IMG/VR virus record: IMGVR_UViG_3300025778_000009
Reading direction: 5' to 3' (one strand)
DNA length: 64,000 bases
DNA from: a virus
Taxonomy: Duplodnaviria; Heunggongvirae; Uroviricota; Caudoviricetes
Below are positions 1 to 61,388 of the stretch, one piece after another (within the stretch, counting starts at the first letter, position 1; each line of letters opens with the position of its first letter). The position numbers and the translations under genes were made by a program. The notes below the pieces were generated by a model that ran no database searches, had not been told where the DNA came from, and saw only the letters and a program-made list of their open reading frames with translations.

Positions 1-1681
1 TATCTGCAAACAAGTTATTATACATGTTAAAGATATTTGGATCGTTAACTAGAGCATCATCCCCATCAAGGAGTACTACAATACTATCCTTAGGTACATC
101 ACGTTTAATATTTACTATTTGATTGTATACTGCACCACGGTTTACTGGATTATCTACAACAGTAAAATGTTTAATTAAATTAGGATATCTACCTTTAATA
201 TATTGTACTACCAAATCTAAACTACTATCATTACTACAATCATTTATAAGATGCATATGCCAGTTATTATAGTTTTGTGATGCAACTGAATCAATACATC
301 TAATTAAATAATCAAATGCATTATAGAAAGGCGTGATTACATGGATTCGTTTTTCTTCCGGTAATTTATATGTATTCCATTCTTCTGGATTACTAAAACG
401 TCTTCCAAATACTTTATGAACACGATCATTAATGAAAGATACTTTACGATACTCTTCTACAGGTAGATACAATCCAAGCTTCTTAAAGAGGTGTTGTTTC
501 CATTGTAGTGCAACCGTATCCCATCCTGCAATCTCTTTTACAATATTACATGCAAACATTTTTTGTTGATGTAAGTAAGTATTATGATAAGCATCAAAAG
601 CCATACGAGCAAATCTATCTGCTTGTTGAGCTACATCAATATTAGGAAAAAGACCATTAGGCTCGATTGCATAATCAATATGGTAACAAGCAGACTCAAC
701 TGCTGTCTCTTCTAATGCACCAAACCTATTAGTTAAAAGAGGTGTATTATAGTATAGAGATTCTAAAGCTGAAATACCGAATGTTTCAGGGAACCCTGCA
801 GGAAAAATAAAAAATGACGCTTTCTGAAATAATTCTGCTACTTGCTTTTGAGGAATAATACCAGTAAAAGAAACATCCAATTCTTTATACTTTTTATCCT
901 GAGCCAGTTCTTCTAGCTCTTTTTGTTGTTGATCTGGTTCTGAAGTAGAACTGAATCTATAGTAACCACCAGCAACAACCAATTTAGCATCTGGAATATT
1001 ACGCTTTACTAAAGGCCATACATTTGCAAGTAAAGGTTTAAGACCCTTAGAGACTGCTGCAACATAAACAAATAAATTACGATCTTTCTGAAAAATATCT
1101 GTATTTTCAAAATACTTTACTATGCCGTTTCTTGTCTGGAATACTTTATTTTTTAATACCTCAAAATTGCGGCGATTACCACCATGCCAGCAATTAGTCA
1201 CATATGCTGTATGAAAATCTGATAAAGTAAACATCTCATTAATATGGTTATTTAACAATAACGTCTCTACATGAGGGTCACCCCATATAAAGGTATCATG
1301 CATCCATAAAACTTTATGTTTACTTACACGTCTAACTTTATCGAAAATTTGATAAGGATATTTTGTAGAATTTTCAATTTGAGACTGAAGAGGAATCGGC
1401 ACAAAAGGTGTAATACAACGTAACGATACCATAACATCATAATAATCATTACATTTTGCTAAAGTACTAATATGTCTATATTCGACTCTATCATAAACAC
1501 CAGGTTTACAGTCGATATCATTGCAATCATTATAAATAGTAACTTGAAAGCCAATTTGTGCCAGCTCTCTAGCCATAAGAGCACATGCTGACTCAGAACC
1601 ACCTAACGCTCGTTTTTTAATGGTATCTCCGTCATAAACCAAGCCAATAGAATCAATTATTACAATAGACGGATTGCTCAT
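1..1681 (-). CDS. two-domain glycosyltransferase (N-terminal GT4/GT-B-like + C-terminal GT2/GT-A-like); its 3' end runs off the window start
   Basis: Hand translation of the minus strand from the ATG at 1681 (a GAGG is 8 nt upstream) gives MSNPSIVIIDSIGLVYDGDTIKKRALGGSESACALMARELAQIGF...FPETFGISALESLYYNTPLLT, a GT4-like EX7E region. It continues ...HVITPFYNAFDYLIRCIDSVASQNYNNWHMHLINDCSNDSS...VVLLDGDDALV, a GT2 DxD region. I found no stop codon before position 1, though the translation was done by eye. The frame is absent from the ORF track, probably because it leaves the window. Confidence 0.6.
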   Translation of the reverse strand, partial: MSNPSIVIIDSIGLVYDGDTIKKRALGGSESACALMARELAQIGFQVTIYNDCNDIDCKPGVYDRVEYRHISTLAKCNDYYDVMVSLRCITPFVPIPLQSQIENSTKYPYQIFDKVRRVSKHKVLWMHDTFIWGDPHVETLLLNNHINEMFTLSDFHTAYVTNCWHGGNRRNFEVLKNKVFQTRNGIVKYFENTDIFQKDRNLFVYVAAVSKGLKPLLANVWPLVKRNIPDAKLVVAGGYYRFSSTSEPDQQQKELEELAQDKKYKELDVSFTGIIPQKQVAELFQKASFFIFPAGFPETFGISALESLYYNTPLLTNRFGALEETAVESACYHIDYAIEPNGLFPNIDVAQQADRFARMAFDAYHNTYLHQQKMFACNIVKEIAGWDTVALQWKQHLFKKLGLYLPVEEYRKVSFINDRVHKVFGRRFSNPEEWNTYKLPEEKRIHVITPFYNAFDYLIRCIDSVASQNYNNWHMHLINDCSNDSSLDLVVQYIKGRYPNLIKHFTVVDNPVNRGAVYNQIVNIKRDVPKDSIVVLLDGDDALVNDPNIFNMYNNLFAD

Positions 1682-1746
1682 ATTTTAACCTCAATAAATA
1701 CATTGTATACTACTAATATATATTATCTTAATTAATTAGGCAACAT

Positions 1747-4700
1747 ATGTCATCAGATATTTTAAATCAGCATCTAATCGGTAATGGAAGTAACACTCAA
1801 TTCACCTTATTAGAAGCTGTTGCCAATACTAGCTCTATTCTAGTAACTATCAACGGTCTAGTATCAGATCCTGACAGAGATTATACGGTTTCAGATAATT
1901 TATTATTATTTAATACCGCTCCATATAGTACTTCAGATATTGAAATTAGATATTTACCTGTAGTTCCCGTAGGATATACTGGGTCTGCAGGTGAACCTGC
2001 TGGTTACACTGGTTCTGCAGGACCAGTAGGAGCTCCTTCAGATATTCAGACTATAGTAGCTACTGGTTCATCTTATTACACTTTAACATCTACTCCTAAT
2101 TCTTCTAAAAATATATTAGTATCTGTAAATGGACTCTTACAGGTTCCAGAAGCTGATTATACTGTTTCTGGTTCTACTATTAATTTTAATACTATACCAG
2201 TAGAATTATCTGACATTGAAATAATTTATTTTGGTAATGTTGTAGGTTATAGAGGTTCTGCAGGGTTTCAAGGTTCTGTCGGATTTACAGGTTCTATTGG
2301 TTACAGTGGTAATGATGGATACACTGGTTCGATTGGTTACACAGGTTCTATAGGTGGTGCAGGTCCAGCTGGTTACACAGGTTCTGGTGGTGTAGCAGCC
2401 CCATCTGGTTTTCAAACATTTTTAACAGATAATAGAACTTCTTATCCTATTGATAGGGTAGTAGCATCATCTAAAGATATCTTAGTTTCCGTTAACGGGT
2501 TAATACAAGTACCTGACGCAGACTATATTGTTGTTGGTTCTAATATTAACTTTATAACAAAACCAAGTAATAATTCTGATGTAGAAATTTTATACTTTGA
2601 TGTTGCAGGGTTTATTGGTTCTACTGGTTATCTTGGTTCAACTGGGTTTAAAGGTTCTTCCGGTGACAACGGCTTACCAGGTTTCGTAGGATCCCAAGGT
2701 TATACAGGCTCTTCTGGTTTTGTCGGTTCTATGGGGTATGTTGGTTCTGGTGGTGTTGCCGCACCTTCAGAAATACAAACTATAGTTGCTGATGGTTCTA
2801 GTACATATACTTTAACAAGATATGTTGTTGATCCTAAACATATTTTTGTTATCGTTAACGGTCTTATTCAGATTGCAGATAGAGATTATACTGCAGCTGC
2901 AACTACCCTTACTTTCTATAATCCTCCTAATAATACTTCTGAAATTGAAATAATTTATTTTGAAGAAGCATTAGGATATCGAGGTTCTGTAGGTTATGCA
3001 GGTTCTGCAGGTACACCTGGAGGATCTACTGGTTATACTGGTTCTAGAGGAACTGACGGTTCCTTTGGATATACGGGTTCTACTGGTTATGTTGGTTCTG
3101 CTGGTGTTGGAGCTCCTTCTTCATATCAAATTTTATATGCAAATGGCTCTAATACAGTATTTACGTTAACATCTTCTGTTGATGCAGCTAAAAATATCCT
3201 TGTTTCTGTTAACGGTCTATTACAAATACCAGATACCGATTATACTGTATCCGGAACAACTATTTTATTTACTAATCCACCTAGTGATACTTCTCATATT
3301 GAAGTTTTATATTTTGATGTTTCTGGATATAGAGGTTCCACTGGTTATATGGGATCTAAAGGTGATCCTGGCGGTGATACTGGTTATACTGGCTCTATAG
3401 GTCCAAAAGGTGATATTGGTCCATTAGGTTATACTGGTTCTGTTGGATTTGGTTACACAGGTTCTGCAGGCCCTGTAGGTGCACCAACAAATTATCAAAC
3501 TATTGTTACAACATTTAATCAATCAACTTATAGTTTAAATCAAGATGTTGCACAAGCAGTAAGTATAATCGTTACTATAAACGGTCTTGTTCAAGTACCA
3601 GATCAAGACTATACCCTTCCTACTTCTAATACAATTACATTTACCAATACTCCAAATCCTAATTCTGATGTTGAAATTTTATATTTTTCTGCATCAGGAT
3701 TTACTGGATCAAGAGGTGCAGTAGGCTATCTAGGTTCAGTAGGTTATCAAGGTACTGTTGGTTTTAGCGGGTCGGCTGGTATTACTGGTTATATGGGATC
3801 TGCAGGGTCTGGGTTTACTGGCTCTATAGGTTATTCAGGATCTACAGGGTTTGCAGGATCTAGAGGAAGTTTAGGTTATACCGGCTCTATTGGTATTGGA
3901 TACACAGGTTCAGTTGGTTCTGGTTATACTGGTTCTACTGGTGCTGGGTATACCGGCTCTATCGGTTCATTAGGTTATACTGGTTCACAAGGATTTCAAG
4001 GTCTTACTGGTTATAGAGGTTCTACTGGTAGTACTGGTTTTGTAGGTTCTATTGGTTTAACAGGATCTATAGGTTATACAGGCTCTACTGGTGCCGGATT
4101 TGTTGGTTCTAGAGGTTTTGTTGGTTCTATTGGTTCACTAGGTTACACCGGATCTATTGGATTTACAGGTTCTATTGGTTATTCTGGTTCTAGAGGTGAT
4201 ATTGGTTTCTCTGGTTCAATAGGCTCGTTAGGTTATACAGGTTCTATTGGTATTGGATATACCGGTTCTACAGGAGCCCCTGGTGGTATTACGTATAACT
4301 ATAGATTCATTAATACACCTGTTGTTACTCCTGCATTTACTCAACAAGGTTATGCAGTTTTTAGTGCAACATCAAATGCTATTTACGTTACATCTGCTGA
4401 CCTAGCAGGAGCAAATACTGCATACTTTATAGAGTATGCATTAAAATCAGTTAATAATAGTATAAAAGGGTTTGTAACTTTATCAAGAGCTTCGACACCT
4501 TATGATGTTACAATATATTCAACTAACACTGCTATCTATTTCCCTTATCCTGCAGTACCTGCATTTCATAAAATATATCTTTCTTATCTGTCTGGTAATA
4601 CTACACCTTACTTAGACAATGAAATAATTAACATTTCATTTACGTTAACTGGAAGTCAAGGACCTAAAGGTGATAAGGGCGATATTGGTTATACTGGTTC

Positions 4701-7700
4701 TGCAGGTCCAGCTGGTCCTTCTGGTGCATTTGCTGGTATGGGTTATACCGGTTCTATTGGTTCATTGGGTTATTCTGGATCTATTGGATATACTGGTTCT
4801 ATAGGTATACAAGGTTCAATTGGCCCACAAGGCTACACAGGCTCTGTTGCTAACCCATCAGCTCCTGTAAGACAGAACTTTAACGGTGACGGTGTAACTA
4901 ACACATACAGTATTGATATCGGTCAAAACGTTAACGGTTATACACCTTATCAATTAGACGTTTATATTAACGGTGTAAAACTCTTTAACGGTATAGATGT
5001 CGATGTATCATCTGGTAATACCATACACTTTATTACCCCACCGAGAAAAGATGATAATATCGAAGTTGTAGGGTCATATATTTTCTCTACAAACCCAGAT
5101 AGTGCAGCATTATTTGGACCTAGAGGTTATACTGGGTCTGCTGGTCCACCTAACGGATATCAAGGATCTTTAGGTGAAACTGGCTATGTAGGTTCTAGAG
5201 GTTATACAGGTTCAACACCTAATCCTTCTGCACCTGTAAGACAAAATTTTAACGGTGATGGTACAACCAATACTTACTATATTGATATTGGTCAGAATGT
5301 AAATGGTTATACACCTTATCAGCTAGATGTTTATGTCAACGGTGTTAAGCTTTTCAATGGTATTGATGTTGATGTATCTTCTGGTAACTCTATTCATTTT
5401 ATTACACCACCTAGAATAAACGATAACATTGAAATAGTTGGATCTTATATCTTTTCAACTAATCCAGACAGTGCTGCATTGTTTGGTCCAAGAGGGTATA
5501 CTGGATCTCAAGGTCCACCAAACGGGTATCAAGGTTCTATTGGTGACATTGGTTATACTGGTTCTAGAGGCGATACTGGGTTTTCTGGTTCTGCTGGTAC
5601 TATTGGTTACTCTGGTTCTGGTGTAAGTTTTAGAAGTTACTATAATAATACTACAAATTACTATATTAATGATTTAGTAGAAGAAGATGGTGCCACTTAC
5701 ATTGCTATTGCACCTAGTATAGGAGAAGATCCTAAAACTAGCAACACATACTGGCAATTATTTGCTAGCAAAGGATATCAAGGTTCTAGAGGTTATACAG
5801 GTTCTACTCCTAACCCATCGTCTCCTGTAAGACAAAACTTTAACGGTGATGGTGTTTCTAGAACTTATTATATTGATATTGGGCAAAATGTCAATGGTTA
5901 TACTCCTTACGAGTTAGATGTATTCGTAAACGGTATTAAATTGTTTAACGGTCTTGATGTTGATGTATCATCTGGTAATGCTATTCACTTTGTAATACCG
6001 CCGAGAATAAACGATAATATCGAAGTAGTAGGGTCATATATTTTCTCTACTAATCCTGATCAAAATGCATTATTTGGGCCAAGAGGTTATACTGGTTCAG
6101 CAGGATTAAACGGGGCTGGTAATTCATTTACTAAAATTGTTGTTAGCGGTCAACCAGATTTAGTAGCATTAGAAGCAGATACTCTTCAAATAGTTGCTGG
6201 TGATAATATAGTTATATCAACTAACAATATTAATTCACCTAAAACTTTAACAATTTCTACATCACTGCCATCTGGTGCATCTGGTTATACAGGTTCGCAA
6301 GGTATAACGGGTTATATAGGTTCTATAGGAATTACCGGTTATACAGGATCAAGAGGATCTGATGGTGTTATAGGTTATAGTGGAAGTATAGGTTTCACAG
6401 GTTCTAAAGGGTCTGATGGCACTATAGGTTATACAGGATCGCAAGGTAATATAGGAAATACTGGAGATACTGGCTATACCGGATCAAGTGGAATAGACGG
6501 TGCAGTAGGTTATAATGGAAGTATAGGGTTCACAGGTTCTAAAGGGTCTGATGGTACTATAGGTTATACTGGATCTACAGGACCTGTAGCCGGATATGAT
6601 ACTCAAATTATATTTAATGATGGTAGTTATGCTAATGGTTCTTATGGATTAACTTATAATAAATCTACTCAAACATTAAACATAGGAAATAATCTTTATG
6701 TAGGTGGTAACATTTATATCACCGGCAACACTACAACTTTTGCTGCTAATAATTTAGAAATAGTAGATAATATGATCTACTTAAATTCTAATAGTGAATA
6801 TTCAAATCCCGATATTGGTTTTGCTGCAAATTATAATGACGGTGAATATCATCATACCGGTTTCTTTAGAGATCATGCAACAGGTATTTGGAAGGTATTT
6901 GAAAATTATAAACCAGAACCGCAAGCATCACAATTTATTGATCAATCTAATAATACCTTTAGAATAGCAGATTTTCAAGCAAATACTATTTTTGCTAATT
7001 CAATATATGCAAATGGTTCTTACGGTTCTTTTGGTCAAGTACTTATTTCTAATGGTTCAGGAATATTCTGGTCAACTTCTGCATTAGGGTTTAATGGTTC
7101 AACAGGGTATCAAGGTTCTTTAGGTGATACTGGCTACAAAGGTTCAATTGGTTACCAGGGTTCAGTTGGTAATCAAGGTATTTTTGGTTACCAGGGTTCT
7201 TCTGGCTACCAAGGATCAGTTGGTTATCAAGGAACTGTAGGTTTTCAAGGTTCAGCTGGCGCTACCGCCGATGCTGGTTATCAAGGAAGTGCAGGTTATC
7301 AGGGATCAGTAGGATTTCAAGGATCTTATGGATATCAAGGTACTGTAGGATTCCAAGGTTCTATAGGAGCTGTTGGATATCAAGGATCAGCAAGTGTTGG
7401 CTATAACGGTTCTACTGGATTTAATGGTTCTATAGGTAATAGAGGTCCTATAGGTTATACTGGATCAAAAGGTCAAGGATTTAATTGGAGAGGAGCTTGG
7501 GACGGAACACATAATGATTTTGGTGATTATCAAGTATACCTTCCTTATGATGTAGTACAATATGATCTAAACACATATGTTTGTATAGTATTATGTTATG
7601 GTGATTCTGGTACTCCTGCTGCAAGAACAGATTTATGGCAGATATTTGCAGAAGGTGTAGTAGGTTATGTTGGATCTAAAGGTCAAGATGGTGTACTGGG

Positions 7701-8370
7701 TTATAATGGTTCTATAGGTTATACAGGCTCAAAAGGTGATAATGGCGTTATTGGATATAACGGTTCTATAGGATATACAGGTTCTACTGGATTTGTTGGA
7801 TCTTCTGGAGCATCAGTTTATCAAGGCTATACTGGATCTACTGGTTATCAGGGTTCTAAAGGTGAAAGTTCTTATATTACCTCTGATACTGCACCTTCTA
7901 GTCCTTTAGTTGGAGATAGATGGTATAATACTACAGCTGGTATTGAACTAGTATGGACTTATGATGGTAATTCTTATCAGTGGGTAGAATTAGCTGCAAG
8001 CGGTTTCTTAGGTATGACCGGATATTCTGGTTCAATAGGAACTATAGGGTATACAGGTTCAGCTGCACAATCATTAATAAATTCAACTCAAAGTTCAATT
8101 TATGTTTTACAATCTTCGGATGATGGTAAATTAATTAATACATCTTATAGCGTTACTATACCTTCAAATGTATTTACAGCAGGTCAGACAATTACAATAT
8201 ATAACAGTAGCCAAACTAACGGTATTACAGTTACTCAAGGAAGCGGCACAACCGTATATTTGGTTAATACTACTTCTGTTGGAGACAGAACAGTAGGAGT
8301 AAATGGTATTGCAGTTATAATATGCGTGGATAATAATACTTTTGTTATTTCTGGTGGTGGTGTATCTTAA
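1747..8370 (+). CDS. giant (2207 aa) collagen-like fiber protein. It has six N-terminal ~75-aa repeated beta-domains separated by G-x-y tracts, long G-Y-T-G-S-x collagen-like tracts, three tandem ~100-aa domains, and a C-terminal globular region.
   Basis: Gly occurs at every third residue over hundreds of residues, in the pattern GYTGSIGFTGSIGYSGS. The module xQTIVAxGSxxYTLTxxxxxKNILVSVNGLLQVPDxDYTVSGxTIxFxxxPxxSDIEIxYF recurs six times. The block NPSAPVRQNFNGDG...FGPRGYTGS recurs three times. Confidence 0.8.
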   Translation: MSSDILNQHLIGNGSNTQFTLLEAVANTSSILVTINGLVSDPDRDYTVSDNLLLFNTAPYSTSDIEIRYLPVVPVGYTGSAGEPAGYTGSAGPVGAPSDIQTIVATGSSYYTLTSTPNSSKNILVSVNGLLQVPEADYTVSGSTINFNTIPVELSDIEIIYFGNVVGYRGSAGFQGSVGFTGSIGYSGNDGYTGSIGYTGSIGGAGPAGYTGSGGVAAPSGFQTFLTDNRTSYPIDRVVASSKDILVSVNGLIQVPDADYIVVGSNINFITKPSNNSDVEILYFDVAGFIGSTGYLGSTGFKGSSGDNGLPGFVGSQGYTGSSGFVGSMGYVGSGGVAAPSEIQTIVADGSSTYTLTRYVVDPKHIFVIVNGLIQIADRDYTAAATTLTFYNPPNNTSEIEIIYFEEALGYRGSVGYAGSAGTPGGSTGYTGSRGTDGSFGYTGSTGYVGSAGVGAPSSYQILYANGSNTVFTLTSSVDAAKNILVSVNGLLQIPDTDYTVSGTTILFTNPPSDTSHIEVLYFDVSGYRGSTGYMGSKGDPGGDTGYTGSIGPKGDIGPLGYTGSVGFGYTGSAGPVGAPTNYQTIVTTFNQSTYSLNQDVAQAVSIIVTINGLVQVPDQDYTLPTSNTITFTNTPNPNSDVEILYFSASGFTGSRGAVGYLGSVGYQGTVGFSGSAGITGYMGSAGSGFTGSIGYSGSTGFAGSRGSLGYTGSIGIGYTGSVGSGYTGSTGAGYTGSIGSLGYTGSQGFQGLTGYRGSTGSTGFVGSIGLTGSIGYTGSTGAGFVGSRGFVGSIGSLGYTGSIGFTGSIGYSGSRGDIGFSGSIGSLGYTGSIGIGYTGSTGAPGGITYNYRFINTPVVTPAFTQQGYAVFSATSNAIYVTSADLAGANTAYFIEYALKSVNNSIKGFVTLSRASTPYDVTIYSTNTAIYFPYPAVPAFHKIYLSYLSGNTTPYLDNEIINISFTLTGSQGPKGDKGDIGYTGSAGPAGPSGAFAGMGYTGSIGSLGYSGSIGYTGSIGIQGSIGPQGYTGSVANPSAPVRQNFNGDGVTNTYSIDIGQNVNGYTPYQLDVYINGVKLFNGIDVDVSSGNTIHFITPPRKDDNIEVVGSYIFSTNPDSAALFGPRGYTGSAGPPNGYQGSLGETGYVGSRGYTGSTPNPSAPVRQNFNGDGTTNTYYIDIGQNVNGYTPYQLDVYVNGVKLFNGIDVDVSSGNSIHFITPPRINDNIEIVGSYIFSTNPDSAALFGPRGYTGSQGPPNGYQGSIGDIGYTGSRGDTGFSGSAGTIGYSGSGVSFRSYYNNTTNYYINDLVEEDGATYIAIAPSIGEDPKTSNTYWQLFASKGYQGSRGYTGSTPNPSSPVRQNFNGDGVSRTYYIDIGQNVNGYTPYELDVFVNGIKLFNGLDVDVSSGNAIHFVIPPRINDNIEVVGSYIFSTNPDQNALFGPRGYTGSAGLNGAGNSFTKIVVSGQPDLVALEADTLQIVAGDNIVISTNNINSPKTLTISTSLPSGASGYTGSQGITGYIGSIGITGYTGSRGSDGVIGYSGSIGFTGSKGSDGTIGYTGSQGNIGNTGDTGYTGSSGIDGAVGYNGSIGFTGSKGSDGTIGYTGSTGPVAGYDTQIIFNDGSYANGSYGLTYNKSTQTLNIGNNLYVGGNIYITGNTTTFAANNLEIVDNMIYLNSNSEYSNPDIGFAANYNDGEYHHTGFFRDHATGIWKVFENYKPEPQASQFIDQSNNTFRIADFQANTIFANSIYANGSYGSFGQVLISNGSGIFWSTSALGFNGSTGYQGSLGDTGYKGSIGYQGSVGNQGIFGYQGSSGYQGSVGYQGTVGFQGSAGATADAGYQGSAGYQGSVGFQGSYGYQGTVGFQGSIGAVGYQGSASVGYNGSTGFNGSIGNRGPIGYTGSKGQGFNWRGAWDGTHNDFGDYQVYLPYDVVQYDLNTYVCIVLCYGDSGTPAARTDLWQIFAEGVVGYVGSKGQDGVLGYNGSIGYTGSKGDNGVIGYNGSIGYTGSTGFVGSSGASVYQGYTGSTGYQGSKGESSYITSDTAPSSPLVGDRWYNTTAGIELVWTYDGNSYQWVELAASGFLGMTGYSGSIGTIGYTGSAAQSLINSTQSSIYVLQSSDDGKLINTSYSVTIPSNVFTAGQTITIYNSSQTNGITVTQGSGTTVYLVNTTSVGDRTVGVNGIAVIICVDNNTFVISGGGVS

Positions 8371-9134
8371 TGAGTATTTTTAATGCTATAACTTCTATAC
8401 CCTATCAAGCTGCATATTTGCCAGCTGGAGTTTCATACGGAAGCGCGCTTCTTAACAATCTATATGTTGGTAATTCAGATAGAAGTTTAGGATCAGGGTA
8501 TCTTTATACTTCCCGTACAGGTGGATTTATTACTTCCGGCTCACTAAATGATTTTACTATAGAAGCATGGATATATCCTAAGTGGTTTAGTTATTCTGGT
8601 GGATATTATAATATGGTTATTATGAGTACCCACACTGGAAGTGGAAATCCAGGATGGGAATTTAAATTACAAGGTCCTTCTGCATCTAGATGGACTTCTT
8701 TAACTTTACGTAATCAAAGAATTTCAACAGATTATCAATTTCCTATAAATTTAGGAGGAAGTGATCTTAACAAATGGTATCATGTTGCCATAGTATATAC
8801 TTCATCTAATCATAGTTTAATTGGTTATTTAAATGGGAATGTATTATCATCTATATCTCCAGCTTATTTTTCAGATAATAATATTCTTCATGTTGGATTT
8901 AATTATACATACTTCCCTTATTGGTTTAAGGGAAACCTTACTAATTTAAGAATATCTAAAACTGCAAGATATACTAATTATTTTACACCATCTGTAGCAC
9001 ACAATATAGCAGATAGTAATGATACATTTATAATGAATATGCCAACAAGTAATTTTTTACAAGAAGATACCGGACTAACTATTTTATATTCAGGTGATCC
9101 TAGTGTAGTTTCACAAGATAATAATCACCCTTAA
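8370..9134 (+). CDS. structural protein with a ConA/LamG-like lectin-fold motif
   Basis: The motif WYHVAIVYTSSNHSLIGYLNGNV matches the LamG/ConA pattern W-H-hA-h-...-LYhNG. The start overlaps the upstream stop as TAATGA, which suggests translational coupling. Confidence 0.5.
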   Translation: MSIFNAITSIPYQAAYLPAGVSYGSALLNNLYVGNSDRSLGSGYLYTSRTGGFITSGSLNDFTIEAWIYPKWFSYSGGYYNMVIMSTHTGSGNPGWEFKLQGPSASRWTSLTLRNQRISTDYQFPINLGGSDLNKWYHVAIVYTSSNHSLIGYLNGNVLSSISPAYFSDNNILHVGFNYTYFPYWFKGNLTNLRISKTARYTNYFTPSVAHNIADSNDTFIMNMPTSNFLQEDTGLTILYSGDPSVVSQDNNHP

Positions 9135-9167: not shown

Positions 9168-11195
9168 ATGACAATTATTGATTTTCCTAATAGCCCAGCA
9201 GATGGTGATATCTATACATTTGGAAATAAATCCTGGCAATGGAATGCGTCAGGAAACTATTGGTTTGCAATATCAAAAACAATAGGCTATTCAGGCTCGA
9301 TAGGGTATACCGGATCTTCTGGTGCATCTGTATACATGGGATATACCGGGTCACAAGGATATTATGGTTCTACCGGGTTTCAAGGCTCTTTAGGCTATGA
9401 TGGTTCTATTGGATATACAGGATCTATAGGTTATACAGGTTCAACTGGATTTCAAGGATCAGCTGGGTTTGTAGGATCTCAAGGAACAAGTGGTGTTATA
9501 GGATATATTGGCTCTTCTGGTTTTACTGGTTCTACCGGGTTTAATGGTTCAGTAGGGTTTATAGGTTCTATAGGTTATTCTGGATCCATAGGTTACAACG
9601 GTTCTTTTGGTTTTACTGGTTCTACCGGGTTTAATGGGTCGGTAGGATTTACTGGATCACTAGGTTATACAGGATCTTTAGGTTACAGCGGTTCTATTGG
9701 GTATACTGGTTCTACAGGGTTTAATGGGTCGATAGGTTTTACAGGATCATTAGGTTTTACAGGATCATTAGGTTATAACGGTTCTACTGGATTTCAAGGG
9801 TCGTCAGGATTTAATGGATCTATAGGTTTTAACGGATCTATTGGATATACAGGTTCAATAGGGTATATAGGATCAGCTGGTTTTCAAGGGTCAACTGGTT
9901 TTCAAGGATCAGTAGGATTTATAGGGTCATTAGGATTTACTGGATCCCAAGGTGTTAACGGTGTAATAGGCTATAATGGATCGGTAGGATTTACAGGGTC
10001 AATTGGATATACAGGGTCTGCTTCTACTACACCGGGATATAATGGTTCTTTTGGGTATACTGGTTCGCAAGGTGCAAACAGTTTATACACACAATCTAAT
10101 ACTGCTCCTCTATATCCTAATCCAGGTGATAGATGGTTTAATACTGATATTGGAATTGAGTTAGTATACACAACAGATGCTAACGGTTCACAGTGGGTAG
10201 AAATTGCATCTAGCGGATTTTTAGGTCAAACTGGTTATAATGGGTCTCAAGGTGTTATCGGGTATACTGGATCACAAGGCATTCAAGGCATTATAGGTTA
10301 TTCTGGTTCAGTAGGATTTAACGGATCTATTGGATTTACAGGTTCAACAGGATTTACGGGCTCTACTGGTTTTAACGGATCGATTGGATTTGTAGGATCT
10401 ATAGGTTTTACAGGTTCTATTGGTACAGGGTATGTAGGTTCTAAAGGGTTTAATGGTTCAATAGGTGCAACAGGTTATGTTGGATCTACAGGATCAACAC
10501 CTACTATAACTTATACTTCACCTACTATGAACGTGTTTACATCTGGTTCTGGAACATATACAACACCAGGAAGTGTTGTGTGGATACGCGTACGAATGAT
10601 AGGCGGTGGCGGTGGCGGTGGTGGTGGTGGCACTAATAATTCAACCACATATAATTCAGTATATGCAGGAGCAAACGGAACTGCAACAACGTTTGGTGGT
10701 ACTTTACTAGTATGTAATCCTGGTCAAGGTGGTTTTGGTGCATATGATCTGCAATATGGTTTTGGAGGTACTGCTTCTATTGGTGATACTTCAAAAGCAT
10801 TTGGTATTGCATTAAACGGTGCATCTGGAGAACCAGGTTGGTCATCATCTCCTTCTACTTATGTTTCTGGTGGTTCTGGTGGTGCATCACCTTTTGGAGG
10901 TGCAGGGGCAAGAGGTTCTGGTGGTACAACCCCGGATGCAGTTTCAATTGCTGCGTCACCAAATACAGGAAGCGGCGGCGGAGGTGGTGGCAGCACTAAC
11001 GCTACTAACGCAAGAGGCGGCGGCGGTGGAGGCGCTGGAGGTTACATAGATGTTATAATAAGAATTCCAGATGCAACGTATTCATATGTAGTAGGTACTG
11101 GCGGAAGAGGTGGAGCTAACGGTACATCACAGTCTGGTTCAGGTAACACAGGTGCTTCTGGTATTATTATGATTGAAGAGCATTATGGTAGCTAA
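9168..11195 (+). CDS. collagen-like fiber protein with a conserved N-terminal adaptor module and a C-terminal Gly-rich module
   Basis: The N-terminus MTIIDFPNSPADGDIYTFGNKSWQWNASGNYW is followed by about 270 residues of G-x-y. It then carries the TAPLYPNPGDRWFNTDIGIELVYT motif, and the C-terminal ~230 aa are rich in poly-Gly, resembling the ORF at 15905. Confidence 0.75.
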   Translation: MTIIDFPNSPADGDIYTFGNKSWQWNASGNYWFAISKTIGYSGSIGYTGSSGASVYMGYTGSQGYYGSTGFQGSLGYDGSIGYTGSIGYTGSTGFQGSAGFVGSQGTSGVIGYIGSSGFTGSTGFNGSVGFIGSIGYSGSIGYNGSFGFTGSTGFNGSVGFTGSLGYTGSLGYSGSIGYTGSTGFNGSIGFTGSLGFTGSLGYNGSTGFQGSSGFNGSIGFNGSIGYTGSIGYIGSAGFQGSTGFQGSVGFIGSLGFTGSQGVNGVIGYNGSVGFTGSIGYTGSASTTPGYNGSFGYTGSQGANSLYTQSNTAPLYPNPGDRWFNTDIGIELVYTTDANGSQWVEIASSGFLGQTGYNGSQGVIGYTGSQGIQGIIGYSGSVGFNGSIGFTGSTGFTGSTGFNGSIGFVGSIGFTGSIGTGYVGSKGFNGSIGATGYVGSTGSTPTITYTSPTMNVFTSGSGTYTTPGSVVWIRVRMIGGGGGGGGGGTNNSTTYNSVYAGANGTATTFGGTLLVCNPGQGGFGAYDLQYGFGGTASIGDTSKAFGIALNGASGEPGWSSSPSTYVSGGSGGASPFGGAGARGSGGTTPDAVSIAASPNTGSGGGGGGSTNATNARGGGGGGAGGYIDVIIRIPDATYSYVVGTGGRGGANGTSQSGSGNTGASGIIMIEEHYGS

Positions 11196-11215: not shown

Positions 11216-11830
11216 ATGAGTATTAATTTTCCTGCTAACCCAACACCTAATCAAGTATACACACTAGGTAGTAAAACTTGGACTTGGAATGCAGTATATG
11301 GTTACTGGCAGGCAACATCTACAACCATTGGGTATACCGGTTCACAAGGTAACCAAGGTTACTTAGGTTATACTGGTTCAACTGGGTTTCAAGGATCAGT
11401 TGGATACCAAGGATCAACTGGGTATCAAGGATCTGTAGGTTTTCAAGGATCTGCTGGGTTTCAAGGATCTGCTGGGTTTCAAGGATCTGCTGGGTTTCAA
11501 GGGTCAGCAGGATTTAATGGATCTTTCGGTTATACAGGATCTCTTGGTTATGCTGGATCTATAGGTCTTGCAAATGCTGTAGTTAGTGATACTGCTCCAG
11601 GTACTCCTGCTACTGGCCAATTATGGCTAGACTCTTCTACTGGTCTGCTAAATATATGGTATTCTCCTTCTAATGTGTGGCTTTCGGTAACATCAGTAGG
11701 CATTCAAGGACAGACCGGTTATGCTGGTTCTGTGGGAAATCCTGGACCTGCAGGAGGAGCTACTGGTTATCAAGGGTCAGCTGGCTCTCTAAGTGCAGCT
11801 ATAGGTATATCAATTATTTTTGGAATTTAA
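11216..11830 (+). CDS. short collagen-like fiber protein sharing the N-terminal adaptor module
   Basis: The N-terminus is MSINFPANPTPNQVYTLGSKTWTWNAVYGYW, followed by G-(Y/F)-Q-G-S repeats and the motif DTAPGTPATGQLWLDSSTGLLNIWY. Confidence 0.7.
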   Translation: MSINFPANPTPNQVYTLGSKTWTWNAVYGYWQATSTTIGYTGSQGNQGYLGYTGSTGFQGSVGYQGSTGYQGSVGFQGSAGFQGSAGFQGSAGFQGSAGFNGSFGYTGSLGYAGSIGLANAVVSDTAPGTPATGQLWLDSSTGLLNIWYSPSNVWLSVTSVGIQGQTGYAGSVGNPGPAGGATGYQGSAGSLSAAIGISIIFGI

Positions 11831-16866: not shown

Positions 16867-16874
16867 TATAAATA
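16867..16874 (+). promoter_or_regulatory. T4-type late promoter motif TATAAATA
   Basis: Exact TATAAATA lies about 35 nt upstream of the ATG at 16910. A gp55 homolog is encoded in this window. Confidence 0.4.
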
Positions 16875-16909: not shown

Positions 16910-18142
16910 ATGACCACGAAGATTTTCGTTTCCCAGATTGATAAAACTAATCCTGACGGGTATACAGGTTCTACCGGTGCCTTCTTAATCCTTGGTTCAA
17001 CTGGACCTTATTGGGCTAGTGGTGACGCTGCTGCACCTGTAGGATTTTTAGGTTCTATAGGTTTTCAAGGATCTTCTGGATTTCAAGGATCTTTTGGATA
17101 TACAGGGTATCAAGGATCACTAGGTTTTGTTGGTTATACTGGCTCAATTGGGTTTCAAGGTTCATCTGGATTTTTAGGATCATCAGGATTTCAAGGTTCT
17201 TTAGGTGATACTGGATATAAAGGATCTTTTGGTGATGTTGGTTTTAGAGGATCACAAGGTGTAATAGGTGATCAAGGTCCAGTAGGCTATCAAGGATCTA
17301 CTTCTTTTGCTGGTTCAGTAGGATTTCAAGGTTCTGTCGGCCCTCCTGGACCAATTAATATTGGATTTCAAGGGTCATTAGGTGACACAGGTTACCAAGG
17401 ATCAGCTGGTTTCCTAGGTTCTTCTGGATTTCAAGGTTCAGTAGGATTTTTAGGATCTTCAGGATTCTTAGGTTCAGCAGGATTTGCAGGTAGTGTAGGT
17501 TACGGTCTAACAGGCTATACTGGGTCAGTAGGTGCATCAGGAGGGCTAGGGCCTTTTGGTTATCAAGGATCTACTGGTTTTACTGGATCTGTACCCAATG
17601 TGAGTTTAACTGGTCTTGTTGATTTTCCTGCTTCATATACTTCTCCAAACGCATTTTTAAGAGTAAATGCTGCTGCTTCTGGTATTGTATTTGATACAAA
17701 TACTTACATTACTAATTCAATGTCTACTGGCATCAGTATGAATTATAATACATTGTTTAATCCAGTTCTTCTTGGATATGGTGAAGTAGTAAATCCAATT
17801 GGTAATGCAACAGTAACCGGTTTTGGTTTTACACCAACCGCTAATGGAAATATTGTTACTGTAACATTAACTGATTCTGTTGTTGGTGTTACAATAGGTA
17901 CTACTGGAATGGTGTCTGGTAGATTATATACCGCAACAATGTTTATTAAACAAGACGGTACAGGTAACAGAACAATAGATTGGTCTGCTTTAAATATAAA
18001 ATGGCCAACTGGTGAAAGTACGCCTCCTACAGGACCTGTTCTTTCTATACAACCAAATTATACAGATGTTATAACATTATATACTTTAAATGCAGGAACT
18101 ACATGGTATGGTATTTTAGCTATTAAAGGTTTTAACGGTTAA
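16910..18142 (+). CDS. collagen-like fiber protein with a non-collagen C-terminal domain
   Basis: About 200 aa of G-F-Q-G-S / G-Y-T-G-S repeats are followed by a Thr/Val-rich globular region. Confidence 0.7.
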   Translation: MTTKIFVSQIDKTNPDGYTGSTGAFLILGSTGPYWASGDAAAPVGFLGSIGFQGSSGFQGSFGYTGYQGSLGFVGYTGSIGFQGSSGFLGSSGFQGSLGDTGYKGSFGDVGFRGSQGVIGDQGPVGYQGSTSFAGSVGFQGSVGPPGPINIGFQGSLGDTGYQGSAGFLGSSGFQGSVGFLGSSGFLGSAGFAGSVGYGLTGYTGSVGASGGLGPFGYQGSTGFTGSVPNVSLTGLVDFPASYTSPNAFLRVNAAASGIVFDTNTYITNSMSTGISMNYNTLFNPVLLGYGEVVNPIGNATVTGFGFTPTANGNIVTVTLTDSVVGVTIGTTGMVSGRLYTATMFIKQDGTGNRTIDWSALNIKWPTGESTPPTGPVLSIQPNYTDVITLYTLNAGTTWYGILAIKGFNG

Positions 18143-27598: not shown

Positions 27599-27631
27599 AA
27601 AGAGACCCTATAAATACAATAGGGTCTCTTT
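27599..27631 (+). terminator. perfect 13-bp stem / 7-nt loop hairpin between the tube and portal genes, with a late promoter TATAAATA (27609..27616) embedded in it
   Basis: The left arm aaagagaccctat is followed by the loop aaataca and the right arm atagggtctcttt, then actttctt. The arms are exact reverse complements. Confidence 0.55.
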
Positions 27632-36300: not shown

Positions 36301-36587
36301 TGACCATCTTTACGTTTTAACCAAAGATCGCCATCATCACCTACTGCCATTGTTACTGCTTTATTAGGATCTGGTTGATGCATTCTCACTAATGATATTT
36401 TATATTGATCAGGATTATCAAATTGTGTCTTCTTCATTTCTGTAGTATCAACTTTAGATGCACCATTAAGAGTTATACTAAAAGCAGTATCTAAAGGTAC
36501 ACCATCTGCTGTTGCTGCTCTTGCTCCTTCAGCAACCAAAGCAAGAGGAGCTACAGGTAGGAATGCAAAGAAACTACGACGATTCAT
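36276..36587 (-). CDS. small secreted protein with a twin-arginine (Tat)-type signal peptide
   Basis: MNRRSFFAFLPVAPLALVAEGARAATA contains an RRxFF motif, a hydrophobic h-region and an AxA cleavage site. Local GC is higher than the surroundings. Confidence 0.5.
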   Translation of the reverse strand: MNRRSFFAFLPVAPLALVAEGARAATADGVPLDTAFSITLNGASKVDTTEMKKTQFDNPDQYKISLVRMHQPDPNKAVTMAVGDDGDLWLKRKDGQWRKVVTE

Positions 36588-37803: not shown

Positions 37804-38589
37804 TTACAGTTTAATTAAATCTTCTAGTTGATATTTCTGTGACATATAGCTAGAAACATTGTCTAAGACTGTTCTTTCTAAATCACCTTCACGTCTAGGA
37901 TATTCATTAACAGTAAAGTCTACATTATTAACTTTTTTAAAAGCTCTAATAATAGCTCTTACTGTATAACCAATACCAGTACCTAAATTTTCCAAACCAT
38001 TAGCAGGTTTGTCTATTGCTTTAATTAAAGCTTCACATATTTCGTTTACATGAACATAATCTCTAATACAAGTACCATCAGGTGTATTATAATCTGTACC
38101 GTAAAGATTAAATTCACCGGTATTTGCAGCTTTAATTAAATTATAAAGAAGACCGTCCGGGTTAGTAGGAGGAAAACCATCAGTTCCTATTACGTTATAA
38201 AATCTAAAAATAGTATAATTAAGATCTTTTTTATTGCAAACTTCTTTTACCACATCTTCACATGCACGCTTTGAAAATGCATATGGATTATTAGGGCTAG
38301 ATGCAGTCCCTGAAGAAGCAAAAATAAAATTATTATAAACAATCTTATTAAGTATATTAATTGTTCCACCAAGATTGTTATTATAATACTTAGAAGGTTC
38401 TTTAACCGATTCGTTAACCCTTACTAGTGCAGCAAGATGAATTACTGTATCTACAGAATAAAAAGTGAGTTTATCATTAATATCACCTTCATACTCTATT
38501 ACTTCATACAAGTCATTATAATGTGAAAGCATCTTTACTAAATGCTGACCAATATAACCCTTACTGCCTGTAATAATAATTTTTTTCAT
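37804..38589 (-). CDS. NAD(P)-dependent sugar epimerase/reductase (extended SDR family, GalE/RmlD-like)
   Basis: The N-terminal Rossmann motif is KIIITGSKGYIGQHL (TGxxGxxG). The catalytic YxxxK is NPYAFSKRACE. Confidence 0.7.
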   Translation of the reverse strand: MKKIIITGSKGYIGQHLVKMLSHYNDLYEVIEYEGDINDKLTFYSVDTVIHLAALVRVNESVKEPSKYYNNNLGGTINILNKIVYNNFIFASSGTASSPNNPYAFSKRACEDVVKEVCNKKDLNYTIFRFYNVIGTDGFPPTNPDGLLYNLIKAANTGEFNLYGTDYNTPDGTCIRDYVHVNEICEALIKAIDKPANGLENLGTGIGYTVRAIIRAFKKVNNVDFTVNEYPRREGDLERTVLDNVSSYMSQKYQLEDLIKL

Positions 38590-41284: not shown

Positions 41285-41339
41285 TTGCTATTATTTTCAA
41301 AATACCGTATATTAGTATTATGAGAAATGGAGAAGTGAA

Positions 41340-55745: not shown

Positions 55746-56533
55746 AAATAGCACATGAAGCTCCTATAAGTATATTTCCTACAGTTCAGCTTATGACCGA
55801 TTATGATTATGCGCTGGTACATTTATTTGAATCTAATTTAATGTATTACCGCATGTTCAAGGATGCAGTGGTAAGCGGACGTGAAGTAATTCTTGATAAT
55901 TCTATTTTTGAATTAGGTACATCATTTGATGGTGATACTTATTTTAATTGGATTGAAAAGTTACAACCTACATGGTACATTATACCAGATGTACTAGAAG
56001 ATAAACAGGGCACTTTGGATAAAATGGATAATTGGTTATCTAAGTATAAAGTCTCTTCAAATATTAAATCTATTGGTGTTATTCAAGGTAAGACTTTTGA
56101 TGAGCTTGCTGAATGTTATTTAAAGATTGCTCCACGGGTAGATAAAATTGCAATCTCTTTTGATTACTCATACTATATAGAATCAACAAAAGATATTAAT
56201 CCTACTAGCAAATACGCTGCATGGATGTTTGGTCGTCAAGCATTGTTAGAGGATTTACTTGCTGATGGTATTATAGATACTAACAAGCCCCATCATTTAT
56301 TAGGTTGCGCTTTACCACAAGAATTCTCTGCCTATAAAGACTATAAGTGGATTGACTCTGTTGATACTTCTAATCCTGTAGTACACGGGTTAAATGGTAT
56401 ACATTATACTTCTAATGGCTTAGATAGTAAAATTTCTACTAAGCTTATTGAGTATATGAACGAACAAGTAACCGATATACAACTTGGTATGGTTAAATAT
56501 AATATTGAAAAATTTAGAGAGTTTTGTAATTGA
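55742..56533 (+). CDS. dpdA: DpdA-like (tRNA-guanine transglycosylase fold) protein lacking the zinc subdomain; candidate DNA 7-deazaguanine transglycosylase
   Basis: NKPHHLLGCALPQEF...IDSVDTSNPVVHGLNG parallels the TGT core KPRYLMGVGKPEDL...DMFDCVMPTRNARNG. ILDNSIFELG lies at the position of the DSGGFQ substrate pocket. The gene sits inside the preQ gene cluster. Confidence 0.55.
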   Translation: MKIAHEAPISIFPTVQLMTDYDYALVHLFESNLMYYRMFKDAVVSGREVILDNSIFELGTSFDGDTYFNWIEKLQPTWYIIPDVLEDKQGTLDKMDNWLSKYKVSSNIKSIGVIQGKTFDELAECYLKIAPRVDKIAISFDYSYYIESTKDINPTSKYAAWMFGRQALLEDLLADGIIDTNKPHHLLGCALPQEFSAYKDYKWIDSVDTSNPVVHGLNGIHYTSNGLDSKISTKLIEYMNEQVTDIQLGMVKYNIEKFREFCN

Positions 56534-60314: not shown

Positions 60315-61388
60315 ATGGAAATTAAAATTGATTTAGAATTATTGCGCTCTAAGAAAATTTTCTTAGCTACACCAATGTATGGTGGTAATTGTAACGGCAT
60401 GTATACCCGTTCATTGTGTGACTTGACCGCTATGTGTGTTAAGTATGGTATTGAACTTCGTTCTTACTTTCTTTTCAACGAGTCCTTGATTACACGTGCT
60501 CGTAACTATTGTGTTGACGAGTTTATGCGTTCAGGTGCAGATCACCTTCTATTCATTGACTCTGACATTGGATTTAATCCACAAGACGTTATTGCTATGA
60601 TGGCATTGCAAGCAGCAGAACCAGAGAAGTATAATGTTATTGGTGGTCCATATCCTAAGAAGTGTATTACATGGGAAAAGATTCTTGCTGCTGTTAATAA
60701 AGGTGTAGCAGATCAAAATCCTAATCAGTTAGAAGATTTCGTCGGTGATTTTGTTTTTAATCCAGTTATTACAGGTGAGCAGACTTCTATTCGTCTTGAT
60801 GAGCCAGCTGAAGTTCTTGAGATCGGTACAGGCTTTATGATGGTAACACGTGATACTTTCTTGACATTTGAAAAAGAGTATCCACAGTATTCCTATAAAC
60901 CAGATCATGTTCGCACCGAAGCCTTTGATGGTTCACGTGAAATTATGATGTACTTCCAGGCTGAAAAAGATGGTTTAGATTATGGCAAGTTCTATGCTGA
61001 CGGTATGCAGAAAATTGCCGCTATGCGTCTCAACGATCCTGATCTAGTACAAGCAGAAATTGAAAAGTTAATGGCAACTGCTATTGAAATGGATTCAAGA
61101 ACTTCTAAGCGTTATCTCTCAGAGGATTATTGGTTCTGTCAATTAGTTCGCCGTATTGGATTGAAGGTCTGGTTGTGCCCTTGGATGCACTTACAGCATG
61201 CTGGTACATATGTGTTTGCTGGTAAGCTACCTGCATTAGCTTCAATTGGTGCATCTGCAACTGCTGATGCTGCTCTTCTTAATAAATTTAAGAACGGCGG
61301 TGTAGCTAAACCAGCAATCGCACCTTCAAAGTCTACACCGGTCATTGCTAATGATCCTGCTCTTCTTAGCAAGTTTAAGAAGATTTAA
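60315..61388 (+). CDS. putative GT-A-fold (DxD) glycosyltransferase with a C-terminal duplicated Lys-Phe-Lys tail
   Basis: IFLATPMYGGNCNG...ITRARNYCVDEFMRSGADHLLFIDSDIGF resembles the GT2 pattern of an N-terminal Rossmann strand followed by R-N-x6-G-x3-L-F-h-D-x-D. The tail carries AALLNKFKNGG and PALLSKFKKI. Confidence 0.4.
   Translation: MEIKIDLELLRSKKIFLATPMYGGNCNGMYTRSLCDLTAMCVKYGIELRSYFLFNESLITRARNYCVDEFMRSGADHLLFIDSDIGFNPQDVIAMMALQAAEPEKYNVIGGPYPKKCITWEKILAAVNKGVADQNPNQLEDFVGDFVFNPVITGEQTSIRLDEPAEVLEIGTGFMMVTRDTFLTFEKEYPQYSYKPDHVRTEAFDGSREIMMYFQAEKDGLDYGKFYADGMQKIAAMRLNDPDLVQAEIEKLMATAIEMDSRTSKRYLSEDYWFCQLVRRIGLKVWLCPWMHLQHAGTYVFAGKLPALASIGASATADAALLNKFKNGGVAKPAIAPSKSTPVIANDPALLSKFKKI

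Follow-up and report, generated by a model that had tools for sequence, protein, structure and literature searches.

Gene extent and domain architecture of the glycosyltransferase

The window analyzed here is a stretch of 64,000 nucleotides from a virus of the Caudoviricetes (IMG/VR record IMGVR_UViG_3300025778_000009), whose left end is occupied by the gene of a predicted multi-domain glycosyltransferase (GT) lying next to the gene of a giant collagen-like fiber protein. We discuss this GT as a candidate enzyme for O-glycosylation of the phage's own fibers. The open reading frame (ORF) within the window (1..1681, minus strand) starts at an ATG that is the complement of 1679-1681, encodes the N-terminal 560 residues of a three-domain protein and is still open past the left window end. 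The IMG/VR contig L001 overlaps window positions 1-2021 with 0 mismatches and extends leftwards; on it the complete GT is 927 residues long (L001:341-3124), the missing 367 residues lying to the left of the window. The first-pass annotation of the window had called the protein a bifunctional GT4+GT2 enzyme. Both domains are confirmed by Pfam, and "bifunctional" undercounts the GT domains because a third, GT-A-like one, at about residues 730-927 of the full-length protein, lies beyond the window edge that cuts the ORF.

The first domain has a GT-B fold of GT4 type and covers residues 1 to about 430 (392..1681, minus strand), with the Glycos_transf_1 match at residues 198-329 (59 bits against a cutoff of 26.4), which maps to 695-1090 and is shared by all 35 aligned relatives of the GT. 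The second domain, a GT2 domain of GT-A fold, starts within the window (residues 446-560; 1..346, minus strand) and is cut by its edge; the Glycos_transf_2 match at residues 448-544 scores 53.5 bits within the window and 67.7 bits in the full-length protein (cutoff 23.3). The expected catalytic motifs are conserved in the 35 sequences: the EX7E motif of the GT-B domain reads PETFGISALE with E299 and E307 invariant, the DGDD of the GT2 domain (D539-G-D-D542) is invariant, and the DSD of the third domain (796-798) is nearly so.

A structural model was obtained with AlphaFold2 for the full-length homolog P0001, which is 87% identical to the window GT, using an alignment of 35 sequences. In the model (mean predicted local distance difference test, pLDDT, of 84), a GT-B domain extends from residue 1 to about 430 and is followed by a GT-A domain (about 445-690); a disordered linker (696-729) then leads to a second GT-A domain (731-930), which has pLDDT values of about 85-95. 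The structures nearest to the GT-B part by Foldseek are BshA, GlgM, MshA and glycogen synthase, with template modeling (TM) scores normalized to the target of 0.57-0.73, and the best PDB sequence match of the GT2 part is 5hea (5.6e-12), deposited as a putative glycosyltransferase, GalT1. Sequence and fold thus place the GT in the GT4-type and GT2 superfamilies. No curated family accommodates the third domain: Galactosyl_T scores 17 bits against a threshold of 23, Glyco_transf_21 is likewise below threshold, and Anp1 appears below threshold in 20 of the 35 relatives (best E 6e-6). In the model it superposes on STIV A197 (2c0n) with a TM(target) of 0.67, and a profile search of the PDB gives the value 0.0086.

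The third domain is also found as an independent gene in two loci (L013 and L094), in the first of which it is fused to Methyltransf_21, and in a further locus (L010) a Methyltransf_21 gene comes after the GT. Longer relatives of about 1120 residues have a further C-terminal region, and the two closest relatives in BFVD are a protein of 1119 residues and an entry of more than 1500 residues named "Methyltransferase FkbM" in UniProt. No membrane helix was detected in the GT (highest 19-residue hydropathy 1.38). From sequence and model, the protein is predicted to be a soluble, cytoplasmic enzyme with a GT-B/GT4-type domain followed by a GT-A/GT2 and a second GT-A domain.

Collagen-like fiber genes and the surrounding structural module

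A spacer of 65 bp (1682-1746) parts the GT from a plus-strand gene for a protein of 2207 residues (1747..8370); the first-pass annotation had correctly described the two as head-to-head. In this protein β-sandwich modules alternate with hexad repeats of the form G-[YF]-[TS]-G-S-x, and its 286 G-X-Y triplets are distributed over 26 runs. It contains 18% Gly, 12% Ser, 10% Thr and 4% Pro overall, and in the triplets Ser takes 38% of the X positions, Thr 23% of the Y positions and Lys 4% of the Y positions; it is the acceptor that we propose for the GT. Next on the plus strand come a ConA-like lectin protein of the fiber operon (8370..9134; Pfam Laminin_G_3, 8.3e-12), a collagen-like protein of 675 residues with a glycine-rich C-terminal domain (9168..11195; Pfam Collagen, 5.9e-39), which has 129 triplets with Ser in 42% of X and Thr in 26% of Y and is a further candidate acceptor, and a collagen-like tail-fiber protein of 204 residues with 34 triplets (11216..11830; PHROG tail and tail-fiber families). 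A fourth collagen-like tail-fiber protein of 410 residues (16910..18142, plus strand; PHROG tail-fiber families, 7.7e-45) has 59 triplets, and its gene is preceded by TATAAATA at 16867-16874. All four genes encode the hexad G-[YF]-[TS]-G-S-x repeats, with Ser in about 40% of X, Thr in 14-26% of Y, Pro at 2-5% of residues and Lys scarce.

The window carries a T4-like structural module with homologs of gp13, 14, 15, 16, 17, 18, 19, 20, 22 and 23, followed by a replication and DNA-modification region. To the left of the GT, L001 encodes on the plus strand a 550-residue protein, a 73-residue protein, a 614-residue S74-chaperone fiber and a 110-residue LtfC-like protein. The structural genes on both sides are all on the plus strand; the GT is the lone antisense gene in a late array and is also convergent with the fiber genes on its other side. 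At 66% identity the gp23 of the window matches that of Stenotrophomonas phage DLP6; its identity to the gp23 proteins of Methylophilales, Pelagibacter and cyanobacterial myoviruses is 58-59%, with 58% for Pelagibacter phage Mosig. Window positions 1-8400 gave no match to GenBank phages by megablast, and tblastn of the GT against the same phages returned weak single-domain matches only, with no close cultured relative. A tblastn search with the 675-residue collagen-like protein, a query largely masked by the low-complexity filter, returned S-CRM01 only.

Phage restriction and linkage to collagen-like genes

The GT family comprises more than 1000 proteins in the protein collection, mostly of about 930 residues, and at least 561 IMG/VR loci encode a relative. 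A scan of prokaryotes with one genome per species (185,579 genomes) yielded two relatives, both in phage tail-fiber regions of contigs from metagenome-assembled genomes. The family is phage-restricted, and its members are 52-100% identical across several phage backbones.

For the linkage analysis, the retrieved loci were clustered at 90% GT identity into 40 clusters, and the counts that follow ignore phylogeny. The immediate 5' neighbor of the GT is G-X-Y-rich in 32 of the 40 clusters, and a G-X-Y-rich gene is among the first three upstream genes in 35; no G-X-Y-rich gene was found among the first three genes on the 3' side (0/39). Giant genes homologous to the 2207-residue gene adjoin the GT in relatives. 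The linkage is kept in at least five arrangements, including head-to-head pairs with an LtfC-like gene and S74 fiber on the 3' side of the GT, head-to-head pairs with a gp23 head-gene cluster on that side, co-directional forms in which the GT ends an array of fiber genes, split-gene forms and forms extended by a C-terminal region. The reverse search took the N-terminal β-sandwich domain of the giant fiber as query, and its counts are again not phylogenetically independent. The GT adjoins 35 of the 41 G-X-Y-rich β-sandwich fibers retrieved (33 of these from L095-L133, the 37 closest matches) and none of the 36 β-sandwich fibers free of G-X-Y repeats.

Comparative genomics, from which the whole proposal is drawn, leads us to lean, if modestly, toward Ser/Thr O-glycosylation of the phage's own collagen-like fibers as the function of the GT. 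The first-pass annotation had left the choice between the fibers and a polysaccharide of the host surface; phage restriction, the 5' adjacency and the correspondence between enzyme type and fiber repeats described below favor the former, and the early-type promoter of the window GT does not.

The exceptions to the linkage are mostly loci with truncated neighbors; the others are of the type of L010 and L014, in which a non-collagen fiber of 2600 residues stands next to the GT. Such loci raise the question of whether other virion proteins (capsid, tail tube or non-collagen fibers) are glycosylated instead, or a polysaccharide is synthesized processively on a virion protein. The location of the GT inside the structural module, flanked by several non-collagen fibers including the S74-chaperone fiber and an LtfC-like protein, would agree with this, as would the mycobacteriophage precedent discussed below and the polymerase-like tandem GT-A fold, which is consistent with chain synthesis. 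However, a G-X-Y-rich protein is the only partner that stays the same from one architecture to the next, while the partners on the 3' side (LtfC-like protein, S74 fiber, gp23 cluster) change or vanish, and even L010 and L014 keep a collagen-like gene two genes further on. We regard this alternative, in either form, as improbable.

As a separate observation, one contig of 202 kb encodes a longer, 1115-residue form of the fiber-linked GT (L049:16173-19404). Within about 3-10 kb past it, ORFs judged by eye include two that resemble epimerases/reductases of the short-chain dehydrogenase/reductase (SDR) type, a PIG-L/LmbE-like deacetylase, transketolase-like halves and radical-SAM-like proteins, which would suggest a dedicated pathway for an unusual sugar.

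The fiber or the host envelope as acceptor

Several points weigh against the fibers as acceptor, beginning with the phylogenetic dependence of the counts given above. Accessory genes are known to accumulate in the tail-fiber region, and multi-domain GTs, with or without a methyltransferase, are a hallmark of O-polysaccharide and capsule polymerases that act on lipid-linked acceptors. G-X-Y-rich β-sandwich fibers occur without this GT nearby in L134-L137 and L152, of which L134-L137 have a PLOD-type enzyme in place of the three-domain GT. Pfam detects neither a TPR, such as SgtA has, nor any other protein-binding domain. The top match of the tandem GT-A part is heparosan synthase PmHS2 (E 1.9e-16, TM 0.2-0.33, root-mean-square deviation (rmsd) 22 Å), GTs of the tail-fiber region have been published as modifiers of host O-chains (PMC7029224), and the promoter signals described in the next section belong on the same side.

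The Foldseek comparison with the whole three-domain model is dominated by matches in domain arrangement with rmsd above 20 Å. At low TM scores the tandem GT-A half matches PmHS2, K4CP, LH3, Mimivirus R699 and COLGALT1, and in this modeled comparison none of the structural neighbors identifies the acceptor. Membership among the collagen glycosyltransferases LH3, R699 and COLGALT1 was considered on account of these matches (TM 0.2-0.3) and rejected, because the GT has no GT25, PLOD-GT or 2-oxoglutarate (2OG) oxygenase signal in Pfam and Lys is scarce in the fibers.

The main competing explanation is remodeling of the host envelope, in which the GT would act at the inner face of the membrane on lipid-linked intermediates of O-antigen, capsule or lipopolysaccharide (LPS) core, and the altered cell surface would keep out competing phages or prevent the adsorption of progeny to debris and to cells already infected. 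WbdA, WbbB and WsaE-type enzymes of O-polysaccharide and S-layer glycan synthesis are likewise multi-domain polymerases, and the combination of several GT domains with a methyltransferase in relatives resembles the polymerase/terminator enzymes of O-polysaccharides. PmHS2 and K4CP, the polymerases to which the tandem GT-A part is most similar (best Foldseek E-values), also unite several GT domains in one soluble polypeptide. Polysaccharide polymerases, however, use lipid-linked or oligosaccharide primers in glycan pathways of cells, together with export machinery, and their similarity to the GT is one of domain arrangement (rmsd above 20 Å); the loci examined showed no transporter genes close to the GT, and the L001 locus has no membrane anchor, flippase or GtrA/GtrC partner nearby. 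A weak PHROG match of the GT to a GtrB-like family (E 0.007) could be taken to indicate a seroconversion system of GtrABC type, but it is the only such match, the protein lacks a membrane segment, and its neighbors are fiber genes.

Envelope remodeling is also what the literature offers. Zaragoza-Solas et al. 2020 (PMC7029224) reported GT genes among the tail-fiber genes of aquatic T4-like pelagimyophages, within a "host recognition cluster", and that paper stresses GT8-type enzymes, read as host O-chain modifiers, whereas the enzyme discussed here belongs to a GT4-GT2-GT-A family; as far as we could see, this family, its fixed position by collagen-like genes and its phage restriction are not described in it. 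The same reading has been published for the GTs of cyanomyoviruses (PMC12801897). The statement of the first-pass annotation that such modification is seldom documented in T4-like phages is accordingly half true, since the 2020 paper had already described GTs in the hypervariable tail-fiber cluster. Against remodeling of the envelope stand the near absence of the family from cellular genomes, the conservation of the GT at 52-100% across phage backbones, whereas host surface glycans are highly variable, and the fixed 5' collagen adjacency and the matching of enzyme to repeat chemistry, for which this explanation provides no obvious reason. We take the envelope seriously as a target and consider it unlikely.

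Several known systems resemble fiber glycosylation as proposed here. The closest is that of SgtA and BclA3 of C. difficile, in which the GT gene also lies beside the collagen-like gene: SgtA, encoded beside bclA3, O-GlcNAcylates Thr/Ser of the collagen-like repeats in vitro (PMC7157674). In that system and in B. anthracis BclA the acceptor is Thr/Ser of Pro-poor or GPT-type G-X-Y repeats of surface fibers. The differences are considerable, SgtA being a bacterial protein of 358 residues with a single GT-A domain and TPR repeats, while the window GT has three domains, no TPR and a phage-restricted distribution; the repeats are GPT in the SgtA/BclA systems and G-[YF]-T-G-S-x here, and the activity here is a prediction.

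Mimivirus likewise encodes both collagen-like proteins and their modifying enzymes L230 and R699 (PMC9614988, PMC9546862), and L230 hydroxylates and glucosylates viral collagen (PMC9614988). PLOD/LH3, COLGALT1 and L230/R699 act on hydroxylysine and need a 2OG oxygenase, in contrast to the window GT, which has no GT25, PLOD-GT or 2OG match and stands beside Lys-poor fibers. By these comparisons the GT lies outside the PLOD/GT25 and Gtr systems, as well as the DNA glucosyltransferase systems considered below.

The work of Freeman et al. in 2023 is said to have found that mycobacteriophage-encoded GTs modify the phage's own structural proteins. There, siphoviruses of Actinobacteria reportedly have their capsid and tail-tube subunits modified at the C-termini, by GTs encoded as separate genes. 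Here the phage is a T4-like myovirus, the enzyme is a fusion of three domains and the presumed targets are collagen-like fibers. To our knowledge, phage enzymes have been shown to glycosylate virions in no more than a few actinobacteriophages so far, and viral enzymes to modify collagen only in giant viruses.

Spacer signals and expression timing

The spacer holds signals for both genes. The promoter candidate of the GT is a σ70-like element, TTGCCT-N17-TATATT (1715..1743, minus strand), whose −35 hexamer overlaps the Shine-Dalgarno sequence (AGGCAAC) of the collagen-like gene on the opposite strand, and a Shine-Dalgarno GAGG of the GT lies at 1689..1692 (minus strand), 8-11 nt before the ATG. 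Across seven loci with GTs of 54-100% identity to the window GT, the TTGCCT and TATATT hexamers are near-invariant (exceptions: TGGCCT in L007 for the −35 and TATAAT in L002 for the −10) and the spacer length between them is constant while its sequence varies. The element also resembles other intergenic σ70-like sites of the window at 41285 and 40973. A simple scan for the σ70 consensus is barely above shuffled sequences (17 found against 12.5 ± 3.8 expected), so the promoter call rests on conservation rather than on the scan.

A T4-type late-promoter-like site, AATAAATA, is located on the plus strand at 1693..1700, 47 nt upstream of the collagen-like gene; it faces away from the GT and is conserved among relatives. 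The late motif (N)ATAAATA has 14 plus-strand sites in the window, 11 of them 13-47 nt upstream of gene starts, mostly of structural genes and among them the collagen-like gene (site at 1694-1700). On the minus strand there are two sites in the whole window, none near the GT. The first-pass annotation had proposed to look for a late promoter; the window GT lacks the late motif, has instead a σ70-like element and runs antisense to the late structural array, an arrangement typical of early genes in T4-like phages. In the co-directional group, too, a perfect or one-off TTGACA-N16-TATAAT stands directly before the GT. By the late-promoter criterion the window GT looks early-type, which, like its antisense orientation, fits remodeling of the host envelope. 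This weakens a role in fiber assembly without abolishing it, because an early enzyme can persist. In about 14 of the 32 divergent relatives, however, the GT strand does carry a late-type ATAAATA at a distance of 18-54 nt from the GT start, which counts for the fibers and against the envelope as target.

A closer inspection of these signals revealed further details. The 65-bp spacer contains three conserved blocks, namely the overlap of fiber-gene Shine-Dalgarno and GT −35, the block ATATATATTA, and the late-type ATAAATA in the 5' leader of the GT; because of this last position, late transcription of the fiber gene would start within the GT leader on the opposite strand. In L032, L043 and L019 the middle block reads ATAAATATATAAT or TATAAATAATATTA, in which late-type and σ70-type elements overlap. 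In the co-directional loci L056, L065, L070, L073, L081 and L088 the TTGACA-N16-TATAAT element lies about 35-50 nt before the GT start and ends 7-11 nt before the annotated ATG, so close that it would give a nearly leaderless mRNA. The GT coding region itself contains, on the plus strand at 1531-1538 and thus 209 nt before the fiber gene, a full TATAAATA, which falls in the codons T-I-Y-N-D (family consensus V-T-V-F-N); if active late, it would yield an antisense RNA that covers the 5' end of the GT mRNA. Between the genes of gp19 (tail tube) and gp20 (portal), at 27602-27628, a perfect 7-bp stem GAGACCC...GGGTCTC followed by TTT holds TATAAATA in its 13-nt loop, a terminator-like hairpin superimposed on a promoter-like site.

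Proposed mechanism of fiber glycosylation

If the fibers are the acceptor, the GT would assemble a short O-glycan, at most three sugars long, on Ser and Thr residues in the G-[YF]-[TS]-G-S-x repeats. We infer from the three-domain architecture that one GT domain might put the first sugar on the polypeptide and the other two extend it, and that in some relatives the FkbM-type methyltransferase fused to or located beside the GT would cap the glycan by methylation. The modification would take place in the infected cell before or during trimerization of the fiber, on unfolded or folding chains. The host pool would supply the UDP-sugar donors, with the GalE-like epimerase of the phage (described below) perhaps shifting it toward UDP-Gal or UDP-GalNAc, which makes this epimerase a possible donor source for the GT.

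Stabilization by glycosylated Thr is known for Riftia cuticle collagen and has been discussed for BclA. More speculatively, glycosylated Thr might assume the stabilizing or hydrating role of hydroxyproline in these Pro-poor repeats, and effects on triple-helix stability, host range or protection of the fiber could follow. Were the proposal true, glycans would be a widespread and overlooked part of the host-recognition apparatus of abundant aquatic myoviruses. The consequences would extend to the stability of the fibers, to host range, to resistance against proteases and grazers and to the annotation of "hypervariable islands" of tail fibers, and the many "LPS-related auxiliary metabolic genes" reported in such phages would have to be read differently.

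A PLOD-type fusion beside Lys-rich fibers

The loci L134-L137 (T4-like contigs of up to 156 kb) have in place of the three-domain GT a fusion protein of 670 residues, encoded directly upstream of the fiber gene and co-directional with it. Pfam identifies in it Glyco_transf_25 (1.3e-16), the PLOD GT domain (1.4e-57) and a 2OG-Fe(II) oxygenase (3.6e-5), and a second 2OG oxygenase is encoded near the fusion gene in these loci. GT25 + PLOD-GT + 2OG-oxygenase fusions of about 650 residues form a family of at least 231 members, encoded on contigs as long as about 150 kb; representatives are located at L135:4758-6770 (IMGVR_UViG_3300021091_000014), L175:8001-9971, L176:8001-9908 and L177:8001-9950. 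In three further fusion loci (38-54% identity) a collagen-like fiber gene adjoins the fusion or is found within four genes of it. Judged by its domains, the fusion is the animal/Mimivirus type of machinery for collagen lysine hydroxylation and glycosylation, encoded in bacteriophages. In the literature we found nothing specific on PLOD-like enzymes in phages or on glycosylated collagen-like fibers of phages.

The fibers near the fusion carry Lys in 40-83% of Y positions (G-x-K), and Lys in the Y position is the residue hydroxylated in animal collagen. In the fibers that adjoin the three-domain GT, Lys makes up 0-12% of the Y positions, and these fibers are rich in Ser/Thr/Tyr/Phe, with Ser/Thr plus Tyr/Phe in X. 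As far as the sequences tell, the type of enzyme in the slot beside collagen-like fibers tracks the chemistry of the repeats. The sole substrates of PLOD/GT25 enzymes known to us are collagen-type lysines, and the three-domain GT occupies the same slot; by analogy, the fiber is therefore the most economical acceptor for it.

It is conceivable, and we put it forward tentatively as something short of probable, that aquatic T4-like phages run two alternative systems of collagen modification beside their fiber genes, each matched to repeat chemistry: a GT4-GT2-GT-A enzyme with or without a methyltransferase for Ser/Thr-rich, Pro-poor G-[YF]-T-G-S-x fibers, and a fusion of GT25, PLOD-GT and lysyl hydroxylase for G-x-K fibers. 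Glycosylation would then replace hydroxyproline in stabilizing or hydrating the triple helix, and host-recognition fibers would gain a second level of variation that is not genetic.

Other sugar-related and DNA-modification genes of the window

Two further genes had been brought into connection with the GT by the first-pass annotation. The first, an SDR sugar epimerase at 37804..38589 (minus strand), was rightly recognized: it encodes a compact GalE-like UDP-glucose/galactose 4-epimerase (Pfam Epimerase, 5.6e-31; phrog_540, nucleotide-sugar epimerase) that matches E. coli GalE at 2e-32 to 5e-32. An SPFH/Band-7 protein is encoded next to it on the minus strand (36584-37780).

The second, a GT-A-like protein at 60315..61388 (plus strand; phrog_1574), holds at the level of the fold, while its Pfam GT match remains below threshold (19 bits against 21.7). 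It has an invariant DSD motif (FIDSD), and the AlphaFold2 model has a pLDDT of 75. The Foldseek matches listed at E ≤ 0.001 are all glycosyltransferases, COLGALT1 being the first and PBCV-1 A64R among them, at TM scores of 0.25-0.38. At least 8000 homologs exist in metagenomic aquatic T4-like phages, of which the 120 listed are 62-88% identical. The protein is far more conserved than the fiber-linked GT, and its gene, with the 7-deazaguanine genes on one side and the gp45 clamp gene on the other, belongs to the replication and DNA-modification region. We have dropped its connection with the fibers; it is probably outside the fiber system.

The 7-deazaguanine (queuosine-precursor) gene set (51568-59610) comprises a QueE-like radical SAM protein (51568-52458), an FMN reductase (53233-53934), GTP cyclohydrolase-like proteins (53946-54677 and 57267-58235), a QueC-like protein (58235-58981) and a glutamine amidotransferase-like protein (58981-59610). 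By its sequence the set hints at a modified guanine in the phage DNA; the window ORFs scanned included no recognizable DpdA-type transglycosylase.

With such genes in the window, it may be asked whether the three-domain GT glycosylates modified bases of the phage DNA and so evades restriction, like the α- and β-glucosyltransferases of T4. We know of no glycosylated 7-deazaguanine, which counts against this possibility. Phage GTs commonly modify DNA (Pyle 2024, cited second-hand), and an early-type promoter would fit. In the loci examined, however, the GT is never beside nucleotide-metabolism genes and its context is always one of fiber genes, it has no Pfam or PHROG match to DNA glucosyltransferase families such as those of T4 a-gt and b-gt, and neither its three-domain architecture nor the sugar methyltransferase fused in relatives is known for DNA GTs. 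Because of this context and the missing family match, we rate glycosylation of DNA as very improbable.

A further gene, located upstream of the 7-deazaguanine genes, encodes a bicupin protein (50220-50879) with a weak match to the cupin of mannose-6-phosphate isomerase.

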